DNA from: Eledone cirrhosa
Taxonomy: Eukaryota
Assembly (NCBI GenBank): GCA_964016885.1
Contig: OZ024746.1
Coordinates: 95,046,001-95,110,000, forward strand
Length of the DNA stretch: 64,000 nucleotides
Reading direction: 5' to 3'
Part shown: positions 7,187 through 57,104 of the stretch, in pieces
Layout of the letters: each line of letters begins with the position of its first letter
Position numbering within the stretch: position 1 is the first letter of the stretch
Made by a program: the position numbers and the translations under genes
The notes under the pieces: model-generated
Databases searched by the model: none
Seen by the model: only the letters and a program-made list of their open reading frames with translations
Told to the model about the DNA's origin: nothing

Positions 7187-7233
7187 ACGGTAGACACTAA
7201 TGTTTCTGGGTGATTACCCTTCATCAGAACCGT
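7187..7233 (-). ncRNA. Type I hammerhead ribozyme motif
   Basis: Minus strand reads ACGGTT-CTGATGA-A-GGGT-AATC-ACCC-A-GAA-ACA-TTAG-TGT-C-TACCGT. All three stems pair (first stem I pair is U-U); GUC triplet. Confidence 0.8.
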
Positions 7234-8389: not shown

Positions 8390-8638
8390 TATATATGAGT
8401 GTGTGCGTGTATATGTATATATATATGTGTGTGTATATGTGTGTGTCTGTCTATGACCAGTGTATATATATCACAGAAACCCACATATATATATCTACAC
8501 ACACATACACATATATATATATGTATACAAACACACACATTTATATATATAGTTACGTTATTCCGGGTTGAATCGGAGGTAACCACAGTAAGTAAGGTAC
8601 TCAATACATAGCAGAGTATAAAAGTGTTAATATAGATG

Positions 8639-8689
8639 AGATTCTACAGGACTAGAACTGTTTCATTCTTTAGAAATCATCAGGAATCT
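8639..8689 (-). ncRNA. Type I hammerhead ribozyme motif inside Helitron
   Basis: Minus strand reads AGATTC-CTGATGA-T-TTCT-AA-AGAA-T-GAA-ACAG-TTCTAGTC-CTGT-A-GAATCT; GUA triplet. Confidence 0.8.
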
Positions 8690-9253
8690 GGCTTTCCAAA
8701 AATAAATAAATGTTGTGGTATTTATATCTTTTCAAGTGATAGGACAGGGTGGGGAGTGGGATGGGTAGAGGTCATTGGTTGATAGAAAGGGAATTCATTA
8801 AAAGCTAATTCTTTAAGGCTTATAATTTATATTTAGAGTAACAAAGGCAGAAAGAATTCTATAAACAAGTTTAGAATGGGGTGCCACTCCTTATTTTTAA
8901 GTTTCTCTTAAGCTAACAATGCCTATATTTCAGGTGTCTATAAGATCGTTGGGGGTCGGTCATGGTTGATGGATTTAAAGAAAAGGGAAATTCTTTAAAA
9001 GCTAATTCTTTAAAGTTCTACTTAGAGTGACAAAGGCCTAGAGAATTCTGTAAACCAGTTCAAAATATTTGTTTCTACTTTAGGCACAAGGCCAGCAATA
9101 ACCCAGTTCATTACTGGTACTTTATTTTATCGACCCCGTAGGGATGAAAGGCAAAGTCAACCTCGGCGGGATTTGAACTCAGTTCAAAATATTGGGTGCC
9201 TATCATATCATTAACTTCAAATTTCTCTTAAGCTATATTCCAGGTGTCGACAG

Positions 9254-14990: not shown

Positions 14991-15299
14991 CCCGATTCAA
15001 ATTCCTCTTGAACAAGTAGTACATGTCGACAACTCCACAATCGGTTTTCAGACACCCTAAACTTCAGAACTATCCTGTATTACCCGTTTAAGGAAAATAG
15101 AGTTAAGGGGATTGGGATTTCCTCCATATTATCGGAGCTGTAGTATTCAAATTATTTCATATGACACACATTTATACTTGAGACCACGTACTGAACTAGT
15201 CTGACGAGACACAGGAAATTCGAGTGTCCGAATTATAAGATCACCAAAATTACTGGATCACCAGTTGCCGGAAAATCAATGTTGAGTGTGTCTGTTGGA

Positions 15300-23078: not shown

Positions 23079-23561
23079 TATATATATATGTGTGTGTGTG
23101 TTAGGTCACTCTCAAGTGCTACTGGTAACATGTAACCCAGTACAGCCTATCTTATGGTCGGTCGTCGGAGTCTAAACCGGCAACTCCGCCAAGCTCGCTT
23201 GGTGAGTAGGGTGATATTTGGACACCCTGCGGGATGAAATACAACACCCGGCAAAGGGCGGAGGAACTCAGCAGAGTCAGCGGCCATCCAAATAGTATAT
23301 TTTCTTTTCACCTGGGAGTAAAAGGCCCCCAGTTGTTGTCACAACACCTTTCTAGATTGAAATTCTGAAAAAAAAAACCTGCGGCTTCGGAAGCATCCGG
23401 TGATGTTGACAAGTTCGCCTTTTCGGGTAGAGTTTTTGATGTTCAGAGAGTGGGATTGGTTGAGTGCAAGGCCTTTCCCCACTTAAAAAACCTTCAAAGC
23501 ACAGGCATTGCTTGTTCAAGATCTGTTATAAGCGATTGCAATATTCTCAACAAAGTTTGCA

Positions 23562-24861: not shown

Positions 24862-25458
24862 TGGTGGATTGGCAGTATCGGTAGAGAGTCGGACGCCATG
24901 CTTTGCAGCATAGAGTTACGGCTCTTTATGATCTGAGTTCAAATCCCGCCGAGGTTAACTTTGCCTTTCATCCTTATGGGGTCACTAAAATAAAGCACCA
25001 GTAATGTACTGGGGTAGATTTAATCGACTTTCCCCTCCCTTGTGCCTATACTTGAAATCATTGTTAGGGCGGTGGATTGGCAGAATCGGTAGAGTCGGAC
25101 GCCATGCTTTACAGCATAGTTACGCCCCTTTACGGTCTGAGTTCAAATCCCGCCGAGGTTAACTTTGCCTTTCATCCTTACGGGGGTCGATAAAATAAAG
25201 TACCAGTAATGTACTGGGTAATTGCTGGCCTTGTGCCTAAAGTAGAAACAATTATTATTATATATATATAAGGGCGGTGGATTGGCAGTATCGGTAGAGG
25301 GTCTGACGCCATGCTTTGCAGCAAACAGATACTGCCCTTTATGGTATGAGTTCCAATCCCGCCAAGTTTAACTTCATCCTTACGTGGTCGATAAAATAAA
25401 GTACCAGTAATACACTGGAATAATTGTTGGCCTTGTGCTAACAGTAGAAACAATTATT
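24862..25458 (+). mobile_element. Three tandem main-family SINEs
   Basis: GGTGGATTGGCAG...GAGTTCAAATCCCGCCGAGG unit repeated three times. Confidence 0.9.
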
Positions 25459-26546
25459 ATACATACATATAAATGTGCATTGTGTATGTATATTTGATGC
25501 AATACAGGCTATTACATCCATAAATGTTTAGTTAGTAGGAACAGGTATAATGCAGAGATCATTAAAACCACTAACTAGAAATATATATATCCGGTTAGAA
25601 AGAAAATCGATATCAGTCATTGACCTTGTATTATTACCACATCATGTGATGAGAATATCAAGTAGCAGAGGAGTTTTTCATTCAATATTCTGTCTTTCAC
25701 AATAATCAATAGGAAACGAGACAAAATTTAGAATAATACCACAAACATTTTTCTTCATTTCAACTGGGTTTACATCCATATCAGAAAAAAAAATCAATAG
25801 TAATTGATGACATATAATAAAAATTAAAAGTTTATTAGATTATAAAGTAGATTGGAAAATTATAAAATTAAATTTTAATATTAATTATTAAGAAAAAAAA
25901 TAATTAATGAAATCATTGTTCATTGACTTGTTGCAAATGAGATAGGAAGAAAGTATTCAGATACCATTAGAAAAATTATGATTATCAAAATTTCCTTACA
26001 ATATAAGCCACATCTCATAAGAGAATGAAGAACCTGAAAACATCTTACAGAATTGATGAGATTGGTAACATTAATGCCTTTAGTCTGAGATAGCTTTTGT
26101 TCACAATATCAATTATACTTTATACTGTACCAGTAAATGAATCACAAGCGTATGTATTTGTTTATGAGTTGTTTAGCCCCATCCTCTTTCGCCGCCTCTT
26201 TTAAACTTACAGTGGATCTTATATATATGTGCTGATAGGAAATGCATAGTCTGCAAAGCTAAGCCCGCAAATTAACTGCAAAACAAATCTTAAATTTTCC
26301 GAGTGCTTTTTAAGTCAACCGCTTTGTTTACACTTCAAGCTACAAGCTTAGAATCCTCTAAAAAGACGGAATTGGTGGCCAGCGGTTCTTTAATGTAGTG
26401 GTTACTGCATTCGTCCAGCATTCATAATGCAGGACTTCATTCCTCACAGACATCTGTGTTCAGTTATTTCCGACTCCAGATGTACTGTACTCGATTCTTC
26501 AAATAATATTTATAATGATTTACTATTATTTATTATTATATTCTTA

Positions 26547-49385: not shown

Positions 49386-49468
49386 CGTTATTCCGGGTTG
49401 AATCGGAGGTAACCACAGTAAGTAAGGTACTCAATACATTGCAGAGTATAAAAGTTTTAATATAGATG

Positions 49469-49570
49469 AGATTCTACAGGACTAGAACTGTTTCATTCTT
49501 TAGAAATCATCAGGAATCTCAGATTCTGATGATTTCTAAAGAATGAAACAGTTCTAGTCCTGTAGAATCT
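49469..49570. ncRNA. Divergent pair of hammerhead motifs (49469-49519 minus, 49521-49570 plus)
   Basis: Same sequence as 8639-8689, duplicated in inverted orientation within the palindrome 49452-49587; the plus copy lacks one C of stem I. Confidence 0.8.
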
Positions 49571-49937
49571 CATCTATATTAAAACTTATATATATATATA
49601 TATATGGGCCTTCCAGTTTCATTTCACATTATATACATGTCTGTGTATATTTTAATTATTTAAAAATTATTTTTAAGTGAACGGGATTTTTTTTTAATAT
49701 TTTGAAGTGAACATGACCCAACGGGTCACAGGTGGTCTAGTTCGATATAAAGTTCACGAATGCATTTTAAATAAATATTTGCTTCAAATTTGAACGTCTA
49801 CTATTGATATGGTATTTTGGATTCTAGTGTGGATTTTTGCCTCTTAAAAATAGATTCCATTTAATTGCCGAGTCCATAAATTTAACCTAAATAAATTGGA
49901 CTATTCAACTTTTACATGATTATATACTTTAGACATA

Positions 49938-51049: not shown

Positions 51050-52262
51050 TAATTGTTTCTACTATTGACACAAGGCCAGCAAATACCCAGTGCATTACTG
51101 GTACTTTATTTTATCGACCCCGTAAGGATGAAAAGCAAAGTAAATCACGGTTCTAAGATAATGGAATAAAATAATGGTCAAGGCCAGCAATTTGGGGGAG
51201 GGGAAAGTCGATTATATCGACTCCAGTACATTACTGGTACTTTATTTTATCAACCCAGTAAGGATGAAAGGCAAAGTTAACCTCGGCAGGATTTCAACTC
51301 GGATCATAAAGGGACGTAACTCTATGCTGTAAAGCATGGCGTCCGACCCTCTACCGATACTGCCAATCCACCGCCCGTAATGGAATAAAATAATGGTTTC
51401 TGAAAGCGTGTGGCTTAGTGGTTAAAAAGTTGAATTCGCAATCGGGAGGTTGTGAGTTCAATTCTCGGACTGGTTGATGTGTTGTGTCCTTGAGCAAGAC
51501 ACTTTATTTCACGTTGTTCCTTCTGTCACGAGTCGCGACCGGTAGATAGTGTCAACAATGGAAAGACCAATGGAAACATTGTTTCCTTGGTCCGATTTGA
51601 CGAGGTCCACCCCACTCGGCAACCAAATGAGGTCTGGGATCTTGTCGATCGATCAGAGTGAGAGCATTACTGGTACTTTATTGTATCGACCACATAAGGA
51701 AGAACGGCAAAGCTAACCTCGGCGAGATTTGAATTCAGAACGTAAAGGGTCGTAACTCTAAGCTGCTAAGCTTGTTGTCCAACGCTCTACTGATTCTGCC
51801 AATCCATCGCCAAAATAATGATTTTTACTTTAGGCACAAGGCCAGTAATTTGGGGGAGGGGAAAGTCGATTAAATCAACCCCAGTGCATTACTGGTACTT
51901 TATTTTATCGACCCTGTATGGATGAAAGGCAAAGTTAGCCTCGGTGAGATTTGAACTCAGAACGTAATGGGCCGTAACTCTATGCCGCTAAGCTTGTTTC
52001 CAAAGCTCTACCGATACTGCCAATCCACCATCAAAATAATAATTTCTAGTATAGGCACAAGGCCAGTAATTTGGGGGTAGGGAAAAGTTGATTAAATCGA
52101 CCCCAGTACGTTACTGGTACTTTATTTTATCGACCGCCCCCCCGTAAGGACGAAAGGCAAAGTTAACCTCGGTGGGATTTGAACTCAGACCGTAAATGGC
52201 CGTAACTCTATGCTGGAAAGCATGGCGTCTGACTCTCTACCGGTGCAGCCAATTCACCGCCC
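51050..52262 (-). mobile_element. Cluster of ~5 main-family SINEs plus a SINE head of another family
   Basis: Repeated ACTGGTACTTTATTTTATCGACCC...GGATTTGAACTC. Confidence 0.88.
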
Positions 52263-53290
52263 TAATCCACCACCAAAATAATAGAACAGAAATGAAAAAA
52301 TAATGTAGCAACTTTCTGCCGATTATTGTGTTTAAGAAGGTCAGAGCGACATAAATTGCCATGTATATGTGGCTGAGCAGTAATCAATTGAAAGTCGTCG
52401 CAGCGTTGTTTTGTTGTTATGTAGGAGTAAGTGAATGAATGACTAAGCTTATATTGAACGTTGGGTATTGATAACAGATGTGCTATCATCTATATCTTAG
52501 AGAGATTAGTTCTGTCGTAAGTGAGAAGCATGATGCTGTGTGATTAAAAGAGCACATTGCACCTCCACCCAGCCTCTCCCTCACGCACACTCTCTCTCAC
52601 ACACGCACACTCTCTCTCTCACACACACACACACACAGGCTCAAACACACATACATACACACGCTCAAACACACATACACACACATATATAAGCGGTAAC
52701 TAAACTACTTTATTTAAACAATATGATTGTCAGCTAATGTCTGCTCCTTAACGAAGGATTAAATAAATTGGGTGTTGTAGGAAACGACATTCCTGCTTTA
52801 GATAACAATAACAGCAACAACAACAACAAAATACAACAGCAACAACAACATGCAACAACAACTATAACAACAACGAATACAACAAAAATTATGGAAAGAA
52901 AGACTAAAATAATCTTTGATGAATTGTTGTTGTCGTCTGGAAATTCGAAATGTAAATTAAAAACTAATAATAATAAAGAAAGCAATTGTCTATTGAGTGA
53001 ATTATGATCATCGTCTGTTAATTTTAAATAAAGCCGTGAAGTCTGGTGGCAGTAATTTAGTGGAATACGAGAACTATCTAAAACAAATCAAACAATTGTA
53101 ATTTGTTCTTTCTTTTTTTTTTCTTTATTTCTGTCTAGAAACTTAAAAGCTTTACAGAATCATTGTTTCGTAAAGTGAATTTCTAGAACTGAAAAAACAA
53201 CAAAACAAAAGGTAAGGATATTTATTATTATCTAAAAAATTGAATAAATTGAGGAGTTTCAATTATTGTCTGAAAAAGGAATAAAATAAT

Positions 53291-53473
53291 TGTTTCTACT
53301 TTTGGCACAAGGCCAGCAATTATCCAGTGCATTACTGGTACTTTATTTTATCGACCCCGTAAGGATGAAAGGCAAAGTTAACCTCGGCGGGATTTGAACT
53401 CAAACCATAAAGGGGCGTAACTCTTTGCTGCAAAGCATGGCGTCAGACCCTCTACCGATACTGCCAATCCACC
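53291..53473 (-). mobile_element. Main-family SINE with ~19-bp TSD
   Basis: GAAAAAGGAATAAAATAAT on both sides. Confidence 0.9.
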
Positions 53474-54129
53474 GAAAAAGGAATAAAATAATCAAATCAA
53501 ATCTAATCTGGCCGAGTTTACACTCGCAAATAAGAAAAACCAGGGCCGCCCCTAGGAGCATTGGATTTGGTGTACTTCATATTTGTTTCGGTTGCTGAAT
53601 ACAATCAGGGGTCACTGCTTCTCCTGAAGGTCAATAGTTCTCTTCTAACTTGAGCGGGAGTGCATTTCCATTGTCAATTTGCATTGATCATCTGCAAAGC
53701 CGCATTGTTCTCAGAACCACTATACCAATCTTTCGATGCAGTTGGAACTACTGCCACCCATTGATTTGGCATGATTTTTTTTTTTTTTTAGATGGTTATT
53801 GACTCTTATGAGTTCTTCCGCCCTTTGTCAAGTTTTGTTTTTTGTCCTGCAGAGTTTCCAAAATCACCCTCCTCACCAAGTAAACTTGGTGGGGTTGCTG
53901 GTTTAGTCACCAACGACCCGACCATGCGACAGATTGTACTGGGTTACATGCTACCAGTAGCACTCGAGAGTGACCTGACATAAAACAGCTGCTTGCTATT
54001 CTAAAACCGAGATGGCCAACTAAATATGAACCTATGATTTTTTTTCTCCCCAATTTTTCTTATTATTTTTTCCCCGTGCCTTCCTCTTGTCGTTCTTTGC
54101 TTTCTATTTATCTTCTATTTCTAGCTCTA

Positions 54130-54165
54130 TCTTCTGATGAAGGACTAGTGTCCGAAACGTTAAGA
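54130..54165 (+). ncRNA. Minimal type I hammerhead ribozyme (tandem copy 1)
   Basis: TCTT-CTGATGA-A-GGAC-TAGT-GTCC-GAA-ACGT-T-AAGA. Confidence 0.8.
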
Positions 54166-54268
54166 CTATCTTCCGGCTATTTCAAGCGTTAAACTGTGTA
54201 CTGTGCCGTTTGTTTTGTTATTTTTGTTATTACTTTTACACACACATACGTGTGCGTATTTGTTTGTG

Positions 54269-54313
<45 letters not shown>

Positions 54314-54417
54314 ATGTTCGACTGAATACGCACGTGTGGTTTTTTTTGTTCTCATTTTCCCCTCTTCCTTCCTCTTATCGCTCTTTACTTTCTATTTATC
54401 TTCTATTTCTAACTCTA

Positions 54418-54453
54418 TCTTCTGATGAAGGATTAGTGTCCGAAATGTTAAGA
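54418..54453 (+). ncRNA. Minimal type I hammerhead ribozyme (tandem copy 2)
   Basis: TCTT-CTGATGA-A-GGAT-TAGT-GTCC-GAA-ATGT-T-AAGA, 288 bp downstream of copy 1. Confidence 0.7.
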
Positions 54454-55148
54454 CTCTCTTCCTGCTATTTCAAGCGTTAAACTAATATATTTCTTCCATG
54501 TACTGTGCCGTTTTCTTTGTTATTGTTATTTCCGTTTACCTTTTACATATATATATATTTATTCACACTAGTTTCCTCATCGTTGTTATTACAGTCACAA
54601 TCTTTCCACCATTGGGCCCTCCATTTTTATTCAGGTGCCAGTCGTCGTAATAGGTAATGTTCTCGTAATTTCAAAGCGAACCTTTTAATTCAAACCACGT
54701 GGTACATCGTTCCTACGTTGTCCATCACTGAAATATTCTCTTATAAGTTACATTTGGATACTCAAGAGATGTAATGGGATCTCAGACAGGCTAGCAAGGA
54801 ATGTAGGCTTTCTATGTGGTTGATGTAAAGGAACAATAAGGAGCAAGGGCTCACAGGAAACAAGGCCCTTTAAATGTCCAGAAGGTTCCTTAAAAGTAGT
54901 CAATAGCCTCTGTCTCTCTCGCTCTCCCCTTCTTTCAATATTATAAGCAAATGGGGGTTCACGCGCTGACCGCACTGCGGCCCCGACGGTCAGAATAGAG
55001 AAGGTATTTCCCCAGGATAATAGATAATGGAACAATACTGAAGGATGATAAGATCACAAAAAGATTAGGTTTAAACTTTTAATTCCCACCGTTGACGCTG
55101 CGGCCGACTAGTTCAGAAGTTTGCTTCACAATAATTAGGTCCCATATA

Positions 55149-56170
55149 AGGGCAGTGGATTGGTAGAATCGGTAGAGCGTTGGGCAACATGCTTTATGAC
55201 ATAGGGTTACTTACGATCCGAGTTCAAATCCTGCCGAAGTGAACTTTGCCTTTCATCCTTACGGGATCGATAAAACAAAGTACCAGTAATGCACTGGCGT
55301 CAATTTAATCGACTTTCCCCTCCCCCCAAATTGTTGGCCTTGTGCCTAAATCAGAAACCAATATTTAGGTCACAGATTCAATCTCGTGTTGTGACATCTT
55401 GTACAAGTGTAATTTGCCATAACCGCGGGTTGGCCCATCCATGACCGAAACTAGGTAGATGAAAACGGTTTCAAACACGCCAGATGGACTCTACCTGTAA
55501 TTGAAGGGCCCAGCCTTGTCACATACACTGTGTCATGCTGAATCTCCTTGAGAATTGCATTAAGTGTACACGTGTCTGTGGAATGATTAGCCCCTTAAAC
55601 ATTAATTCAATGAGCAGGTTGTTTTGTTAATCGAACAACTGGAACAATGGTTGACGAAATCGATAAAAATCCTTTTCAATTTGCATCACTTTACGGGACA
55701 ATAACAGAGTTGATATGCTGCTATTTATACACAGTACACTCCTGTCTTAGCTAAACGAACAAGTGATGTTACAAGTAACTAACATCTAATGTAATTCCAT
55801 CCTAGGTCAATGTCTGTTGCAATGGAATGAAAACAATTTAGCCCATAATCCGAATAGAGGACTCGGATCGAATTTCTCTGAGCATTACCTAATACAATAA
55901 TGATTTAATAACCAAGATGAAGACACTAGCCTGAATAAACCAATATATAATAATTATTTATAGTATAGGCACACGGCCAGTAATTTGGGGAGAGGAGAAA
56001 GACGATTAAATCGACCCCAATACATTACTGGTACTTTATTTTATCGACCCCGTAAGGATGAAAGACAAAGTTAACCTCGGCAGGATTTGAACTCAGACCA
56101 TAAAGGGCCGTAACTCTTTGCTGCAAAGCATGGCGTCCGACCCTCTACCGATACTGCCAGTCCATTGCCC
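55149..56170. mobile_element. SINE copies (main family + at 55149, third family ~55490, main family - at 55955)
   Basis: Conserved SINE bodies; TSD TAAACCAATATATAATA around the last copy. Confidence 0.8.
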
Positions 56171-56529: not shown

Positions 56530-57104
56530 GCTGTGACGAATCTTATAACGCTGAACTTCTGTAGTCTCTCACGCCCCTTCCTCAGTCATCACATAGATGT
56601 GTGTGTATTAGACACCCCTTCCTTCCTCAGTCGACGTTATCACCCCTTCCTTCCTCTGTCGACGTTAGCACCCCTTCCTTCCTCAGTCGACGTTATCACC
56701 CCTTCCTTCCTCTGTCGACGTTAGCACCCCTTCCTTCCTCAGTCGACGTTATCACCCCTTCCTTCCTCTGTCGACGTTAGCACCCCTTCCTTCCTCTGTC
56801 GACGTTATCACCCCTTCCTTCCTCTGTCGACGTTATCACCCCTTCCTTCCTCTGTCGACGTTAGCAGCCCTTCCTTCCTCTGTCGACGTTATCACCCCTT
56901 CCTTCCTCAGTCGACGTTATCACCCCTTCCTTCCTCTGTCGACGTTAGCAGCCCTTCCTTCCCTAGTCGGTCGACGTTAGCAGCCCTTCCTCCCCTAGTC
57001 GACGTTAGCACCCCTTCCTTCCTCAGTCGACATTATCACCCCTTCCTTCTTCAGTCATCTCTAGTATGTGACTGAAAAATAGACAAGGCTATTATATTAG
57101 TAGA
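56346..57104 (-). mobile_element. Probable Helitron carrying a 28-bp minisatellite
   Basis: Minus-strand TC start (TCTACTAATATAATAGCC) and CTAG end; GTCACATACTAGAGATGACTGA...GAAGGAAGGGGTG shared with 50287-50325. Confidence 0.5.
56613..57056 (+). repeat. 28-bp minisatellite, ~15-16 units
   Basis: CACCCCTTCCTTCCTCWGTCGACGTTAK. Confidence 0.95.

Follow-up and report, generated by a model that had tools for sequence, protein, structure and literature searches.

Organization of the locus

The window (the whole 64-kb stretch of Eledone cirrhosa DNA analysed here) contains, on the plus strand, two direct repeats each of which carries a hammerhead ribozyme motif. Copy 1, a putative 3' end of the Penelope-like element (PLE) type or pseudo-LTR-like unit, occupies 54010-54239 (ca. 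230 nt), and copy 2, which has (TA)n on either side, 54312-54546 (ca. 235 nt). A preliminary description of this DNA had put each repeat at ca. 150 bp, which is too short. Global alignment of the copies gives 186 identical residues in 216 columns (86%) and a JC distance of 0.15; it contains four indels, two of them 14 nt long and the others smaller. Copy 1 possibly starts up to 27 nt earlier (53983). In the weak 5' extension of the homology 19 of 28 positions are identical, a value matched by one of 20000 shuffles (best of 31 offsets) and thus not due to chance.

Between the repeats lies a 72-nt microsatellite spacer (54240-54311) composed of a degenerate CA/TG run (54240-54268) followed by (TA)n (54269-54311). 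The TA tract of the preliminary description is present, but the spacer also holds the CA/TG run. The spacer is likely to be the insertion target and to lie outside the family unit. Behind the 3' end of copy 2 is (AT)6 (54547-54558). Directly upstream of copy 1, at 53787-53982, we found another very high-copy repeat, which is also present at 23099-23292 (80%); since relatives of that element end in (CATA)n, copy 1 may sit in its tail.

The window as a whole is dense in microsatellites and dominated by a 200-bp tRNA-like SINE, presumably of the octopus type, located at 53285-53492, 55142-55369 and about 20 other places, with tandem runs at 24863-25472 and 51664-52213. A 28-bp minisatellite of about 16 copies is found at 56557-57056.

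The hammerhead motifs

The motifs are 36 nt in length and are located at 54130-54165 (copy 1) and 54418-54453 (copy 2), both on the plus strand. Each consists of TCTT and the core, then an additional A, stem II (4 bp) and its loop, GAA, a loop-less ACGT, T and AAGA. The core pattern CTGATGA-N(1-25)-CGAAA matches at 54134-54157 and 54422-54445, that is 288 bp apart; these are the only matches on either strand of the 64-kb window against an expectation of 0.10, and two or more were found in none of 100 shuffles. The 5' strand of stem I in copy 1 is the TCTT at 54130-54133, its 3' strand being AAGA; as RNA, the stem comprises the four pairs of UCUU/AAGA without a clean extension, and the tract upstream of it is 13% purine. 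Stem II is GGAC/GTCC closed by the 4-nt loop TAGT, with one U-G pair in copy 2. The extra A, between A9 and 10.1, is at 54141 and 54429, respectively. Cleavage is predicted after 54161 in copy 1 and after 54449 in copy 2, in both cases at a GUU site. The sole differences between the two motifs are C/T at 54145/54433 and 54158/54446, and all of the invariant catalytic bases are kept in both cores. The preliminary description was correct in reporting tandem minimal hammerheads 288 bp apart, and the anatomy of their TCTT/AAGA stems and loop-less ACGT stem III is as it claimed. The motif differs between the copies at 2 of 36 positions and the flanks at 8 of 62 and 2 of 28; the better preservation of the motif is not significant.

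Minimal hammerhead ribozymes (min-HHRs) were described in the pseudo-LTRs of metazoan PLEs by Cervera and De la Pena 2014 (PMC4209133). The definition given there comprises the lack of loop III, a palindromic 15.2-16.2 segment, one base between A9 and 10.1, a G10.1-C11.1 pair, a short helix I and a U-rich 5' flank. Both copies possess the CUGANGA core, GAAA and a NUH cut site, together with the extra nucleotide between A9 and 10.1, the G10.1-C11.1 pair and stem II, and the locus has a short stem I (within 3-5 bp) and a U-rich 5' flank. In the palindromic segment copy 1 has the expected ACGU, whereas copy 2 has AUGU, which allows a wobble only; the family majority is C. Copy 1 fits the consensus of Fig S3 of PMC4209133 in full. 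Judged by sequence, both copies belong to those minimal type I hammerheads that require a dimer, and the ACGU palindrome would pair between copies (PMC4209133), as the preliminary description proposed for stem III.

The likeness to the published PLE-borne motifs (PMC4209133) extends to the loop-less ACGU stem III, the extra base, G10.1-C11.1, a 4-bp stem I with no defined loop, the U-rich 5' flank and GUU. Exact ACGUU occurs in 15 of the 56 min-HHRs of Fig S3 of PMC4209133, both of the Lottia (mollusc) examples included, and U is found at the cut in 24 of the 56 (all counts over this figure were made by eye). GUU is therefore ordinary for the class and no peculiarity, nor a defect special to this locus, while GUC and GUA cleave faster in general according to PMC3138052. 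The locus differs in that its 4-bp stem II is at the short end of the published range and the palindrome of copy 2 is broken. Among the 41 loop-less rows of the figure, again by eye, 15.2-16.2 is Watson-Crick in 40, C-A in one and U-G in none, so that, on sequence, the AUGU of copy 2 is a departure from the class. None of the 56 published examples is from a cephalopod. As described in the same source, min-HHRs number thousands per genome and are mostly single and away from ORFs; monomers are inactive, and dimers and trimers are of low activity.

Searches of Rfam returned no hammerhead at the locus, either at the gathering score or among the 17 rows obtained at E up to 10, the best rows being miRNA models placed on the TA tract. 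The identification consequently rests on a descriptor and not on a covariance model.

Three further structures in the window recall the hammerhead. A second decayed min-HHR-like motif, belonging to another family, is located at 7195-7227 (minus strand) and has the core, the extra A, a 4-bp stem II and a stem III of ACAT, with an inserted A before GAAA. At 49447-49592 is a 146-bp near-perfect palindrome (97%) in which a repeat that recurs at 8505-8690 is present as two copies, head to head. The palindrome starts with a CTGATGA...GAAACAGTT motif, whose stem II has U-U at its base, and ends in (TA)n; it looks like the inverted structure of a PLE with a hammerhead of atypical form. Lastly, 15201-15233 (CTGACGA, a 5-bp hairpin and CGAAT) is a partial look-alike which fails in the GAAA/NUH part.

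Abundance and ends of the repeat family

Sequences from four of 16 listed sequencing runs (X2, X4, X6 and X14) were aligned to 53900-54800 at 80% likeness. X2 also contains the unique flank, X4 and X6 are from a second and a third organism, respectively, and X14 consists of raw DNA reads; X6 is the one run with a small share among those aligned. No RNA run is listed among the 16. In X2 the unique flank (54613-54736) has a summed contig word depth of 5-9. For the motifs and the 3' part of copy 2 the value is 1.1e5-4.4e5, or 1.6e4 to 6e4 times that of the flank, a ratio of word depth, not of copy number. Depth in X4 is similar, and that in X6 is lower at about 1e3. Across the motifs the raw reads of X14 number in the hundreds to thousands; on the flank there are none. 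The hammerhead-bearing family is very abundant. In this respect also it is like the PLE min-HHRs of PMC4209133, the published ones being thousands of scattered copies, mostly with no ORF.

The relatives cease to match at the same 3' point, where they go on with (AT)n or (ATAC)n in the place of the (AT)6 behind copy 2. Alignments of family contigs begin at 54320, where the tool cuts, and extend to ca. 54524-54558; loose ends are found at 54524 in three runs, and position 54559 is 98% A in X2. Dispersal in high copy number and a fixed 3' end are features of a PLE family, as are the insertion into microsatellites, which characterizes some clades, and the partial-tandem layout; all are seen here.

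On the 5' side the depth falls steeply upstream of the copy 2 motif, from 3271 times the flank at 54365-54395 to 93 times at 54334-54364 and 16 times at 54303-54333; over the 5' part of copy 1 (54024-54085) it is 11-18 times. The drop may reflect, as far as the alignments tell, either divergence of subfamilies in the pyrimidine tract or 5' truncation; we rejected the gradient as proof of truncation, because divergence of the flanks accounts for it as well. Subfamilies which have the core in common and differ in their flanks are marked by loose ends at 54126, 54167 and 54404 (among 24 of 1479 listed). Over the spacer the depth is some 1000-fold below that of the motif, namely 45 times the flank (54241-54271; the tool skips 54259-54319) vs 4e4-6e4 times, and the 72-nt spacer appears to be locus-specific. 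No joint from the family 3' end to the start of a unit was found among 15 of 201 joints listed, again with 54259-54319 skipped by the tool, so that tandem arrays may exist elsewhere. One relative in X4 has two hammerhead motifs about 62 nt apart (54167 to 54130), and as a working dimer it is more promising than the pair described here.

Direction of the copy 2 changes and origin of the pair

At 54433, C accounts for 76%, 81% and 89% of the depth in X2, X4 and X14, respectively, and at 54446, which is a CpG and corresponds to position 15.2, for 69%, 54% and 72%. C is in the majority even though T-bearing reads are drawn to copy 2, and the two T's of copy 2 are therefore derived. The preliminary description had drawn attention to both stem differences being C-to-T changes which leave G-U pairs. 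The differences are real, but they carry no value as evidence: a C-to-T change opposite G always gives G-U, and such pairs are thus no sign of selection. We rejected retention of G-U pairs as selection on these grounds, one of the sites being a CpG and most relatives having C. The changes have a cost, since stem II goes from -4.4 to -2.4 kcal/mol and the inter-copy stem III from -1.7 to +0.1 kcal/mol (ca. 3.8 kcal/mol in total), and that at 54446 breaks the stem III palindrome.

Outside the motif, copy 1 has private changes at 54078, 54089, 54099, 54124, 54168 and 54175, in addition to a 14-nt deletion, and copy 2 at 54514 and 54533; each copy has at least five private changes (all among 40 of 137 rows listed). 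The two copies have in common letters that are in the minority in the family, namely G at 54092/54380, where 93-99% of the depth is A. Further minority letters of the pair are T at 54149 (68-82% C) and T at 54455 (48-71% C). These rare common letters, and a homology which starts at the same base in both copies, favour one origin, and we infer that the pair arose in one event (either insertion as a partial tandem or duplication, locally, between the microsatellites on its flanks), a view to which we lean only slightly over two insertions. Two separate insertions of one subfamily into the same microsatellite are possible, since PLEs tend to insert adjoining earlier copies (PMC6765202).

Probable link to Penelope-like elements

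No remnant of a PLE ORF was detected in the window by tblastn with 37 endonuclease relatives, which are distant queries (best E 0.12). Pfam analysis of 9 of the 37 nearby ORFs gave no families. PLEs may carry a "tail" of 30-40 bp at one end and an inverted copy truncated at its 5' side; no inverted copy of the repeat unit is listed nearby. Membership of the family among the PLEs is accordingly argued from the type of motif and the structure of the ends.

When metagenomes were scanned for the motif with stems I and III as here, two loci, L001 and L002, were returned, neither of which has flanking DNA in common with the window. In L001, at 173-479, a frame which corresponds to the C-terminal half of a GIY-YIG endonuclease, and in which the PLE-type Cys pair is present, runs straight into a minimal hammerhead. 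L001 is from another organism, and the ribozyme motif is all that it has in common with the window. L002 has the motif with no recognisable ORF upstream. The L001 frame has 37 longer homologues, some of which show a YKIPC..C..CYIGETG start and have the Cys pair inside the GIY-YIG motif (seven were inspected); hammerhead read-through, called as protein, is present at the end of 7 of the 37 (strict pattern). Pfam GIY-YIG matched two of ten homologues at E values of 0.01 and 0.046, below the cut-off, and the nearest named Atlas cluster is GIY-YIG (17%, score 0.89). A match of the L001 fragment to rve was rejected, being a weak Pfam match only (E 0.063). We take the homologues to be PLE endonucleases, a reading based in part on general features of the family. 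It also draws on the CCHH description of PLE endonucleases in PMC8557442. The position of the L001 motif at the end of a GIY-YIG frame suggests that the minimal motif form is PLE-borne. Among viral contigs there were 18 pattern matches, none of which had the TCTT/AAGA stem I and most of which appeared by eye to be coding look-alikes; P0025 gave no viral locus.

The microsatellite setting is in keeping with a PLE. Microsatellite bias has been reported for PLE clades (PMC8557442), and targeting of AT-rich DNA and microsatellites by PLEs in PMC8557442 and PMC11167929. The locus is like the microsatellite-targeting clades Neptune, Hydra and Naiad (Craig et al. 2021, PMC8557442) in that its ends adjoin (TA)n-type repeats and in its partial-tandem arrangement. 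Since Naiads have no canonical hammerheads, Neptune, Hydra or Poseidon/Penelope would be the likelier clade, as judged from features other than RT and EN sequence.

Folding of the dimer and comparison with retrozymes

A double hammerhead can be drawn in which all five helices consist of standard or G-U pairs. In it the copy 1 core would cut after 54449, and the copy 2 core, which contains both wobbles, after 54161. The hypothetical product of double cleavage, computed from the predicted cuts, is the plus-strand RNA 54162-54449. Its length would be 288 nt, as the preliminary description calculated, and falls, as was also said there, within the 170-400 nt range of retrozymes (PMC7229834). Of the interval, 78 nt belong to the 3' end of the family, 72 nt to the microsatellite and 138 nt to the 5' part of the family.

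When constrained in ViennaRNA, the double hammerhead is 21 kcal/mol above the free ensemble, a figure uncalibrated against an active dimer and from a program which ignores hammerhead tertiary folding and Mg2+. The dimer helices are at or below 1% in the ensemble, and stem II of copy 2 is at 1%. The 288-nt circle has an MFE of -45.8 kcal/mol (z -2.5, from 100 shuffles), to which the (UA)n hairpin by itself contributes -28.7 kcal/mol. Mean pairing probability in the circle is 0.50, with 0.83 in the spacer and 0.41 and 0.38 in the family parts; the highly self-paired monomer expected of a retrozyme is not found, the pairing being carried by the (UA)n spacer. The spacer and the start of copy 2 (54247-54338) form a long hairpin with about 15 consecutive base pairs at its foot (four of them G-U) and a (UA)n stem, and this probably follows from the alternating purine-pyrimidine sequence.

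According to Cervera and De la Pena 2020 (PMC7229834), validated metazoan retrozymes carry canonical type I hammerheads within tandem units of 170-400 nt, and minimal motifs are set apart in that paper as the PLE/Terminon type. The canonical form has a helix I of ca. 6 bp and loop-loop contacts; the motif here is minimal with a 4-bp stem I. By comparison Li, Clavereau and Pollet 2026 (10.64898/2026.07.22.740005) admit minimal motifs and require a tandem called by TRF; they argue that animal retrozymes represent non-autonomous elements derived from PLEs, and report cleavage of one of nine predicted Xenopus dimers. At the published retrozyme settings (2 7 7 80 10 50 1000) TRF called only the (TA)n tract and not the pair, and two laxer settings likewise gave no period of 288-302. 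Like the metazoan non-LTR retrozymes, the locus has direct repeats with a type I hammerhead in each, the two being spaced by a few hundred bases; it is non-coding and low in GC (31%). At -7.8 and -5.3 kcal/mol both motifs also pass the filter of -5 kcal/mol set in the 2026 pipeline (10.64898/2026.07.22.740005), though as non-catalytic or partial folds. The validated retrozymes of PMC7229834, on the other hand, have homogeneous units of 170-400 nt which are expressed as self-paired circles, whereas this locus has a minimal motif, 14% divergence between copies, a microsatellite spacer outside the family unit, and no TRF call. The pair not being called at the 2026 settings or at the two laxer ones, the locus does not, on the tests run, qualify as a retrozyme; it would be at most a double hammerhead of the PLE type. 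The retrozyme-like unit of the preliminary description, with a microsatellite inside the interval and a minimal rather than canonical motif, is for the same reasons not upheld.

Interpretation

We consider it probable that the locus represents two decayed, head-to-tail 3' ends (pseudo-LTR-like) of a very high-copy PLE family with a standard min-HHR, flanking a (TA)n-type microsatellite. As envisaged from the literature, the ACGU palindrome would let two min-HHRs in transcripts of tandem copies join as a double hammerhead, which would cut weakly after GUU, and the PLE reverse transcriptase/GIY-YIG endonuclease would copy the RNA into AT-rich microsatellites. At this locus a single event, most likely, would have been followed by independent (symmetric) decay of the copies. 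The 288-nt interval would then be a by-product of the locus and not a propagating unit, and release of the RNA should be weak or absent, since the cut at site 1 needs the damaged core of copy 2.

Three other readings of the pair were weighed against this one. That the motif is a chance look-alike inside a duplicated repeat is hardly credible. The Rfam result agrees with it, and two copies of one repeat amount to a single observation; against this, the fit to the published 36-nt architecture is complete and includes features outside the search pattern (the extra base after A9, the palindrome and stem I), the core is the part commonest among relatives with differing flanks, and the same motif stands behind a GIY-YIG frame in another organism. 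A working retrozyme-like dimer, transcribed and cut twice with release and circularisation of the 288-nt RNA, would have in its favour the intact catalytic bases of both cores, the five drawable helices, a length in the published range, the z value of the circle, and a spacer hairpin (-28.7 kcal/mol) which would draw the motifs closer. We regard it as quite improbable: the spacer appears locus-specific and TRF calls no tandem, the copies are 14% different, the stability of the circle comes from the (UA)n hairpin, the motif is minimal and not canonical, U-G at 15.2-16.2 has no precedent in the 41 loop-less published examples (by eye, PMC4209133), and eight of the nine predicted Xenopus dimers gave no cleavage (10.64898/2026.07.22.740005).

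The third reading makes the family a short (about 235-260 nt) non-autonomous PLE derivative, existing mostly as monomers in microsatellites, and the locus an old decayed dimer with both copies near full length; in the usage of Li et al. 2026 (10.64898/2026.07.22.740005) such monomers would be monomeric retrozyme copies. It would account for the homology of the copies beginning at the same base and ending at the same 3' end, for the very high abundance from the motif to the 3' end, and for there being no RT and GIY-YIG ORF nearby, and non-autonomous PLE derivatives with head-to-tail copies have been described (10.64898/2026.07.22.740005, PMC8557442). The 5' part of the pair, however, is held by few relatives (11-18 times the flank at 54024-54085 and 16-93 times at 54303-54364 vs >4e4 times at the motif), which argues that there is no family-wide 5' end, and common origin of the copies accounts for the identical start. 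We think this reading unlikely. A bolder version supposes a short, non-autonomous hammerhead element, so far unnamed, that targets microsatellites in a cephalopod genome and is extremely abundant, with copies in the tens of thousands. Where two copies flank a (TA)n hairpin able to pair with itself, they would by accident form a double hammerhead, from which RNAs specific to the locus would be released and circularised. This would be the birth of a retrozyme; we look on it as a long shot.

With the reading as decayed PLE-type 3' ends, the kind of element is already known, and what is new is host range and abundance only. We found no description of such a family in the literature on hammerheads in octopus or cephalopods. 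Octopus genomes contain many PLE families according to the 2026 Octopus vulgaris repeat paper (PMC13282606), the main text of which has no mention of "ribozyme" or "hammerhead", and two words of the motif are absent from the supplement of PMC8557442. The family may accordingly be an unreported member of the min-HHR class. As read here, the locus is of little importance in itself, being one among many thousands of decayed PLE-type hammerheads of a class described in 40 animal species. Cleavage and circularisation of the pair, should they occur, would directly exemplify the step that has been proposed to lead from PLE ends to retrozymes.
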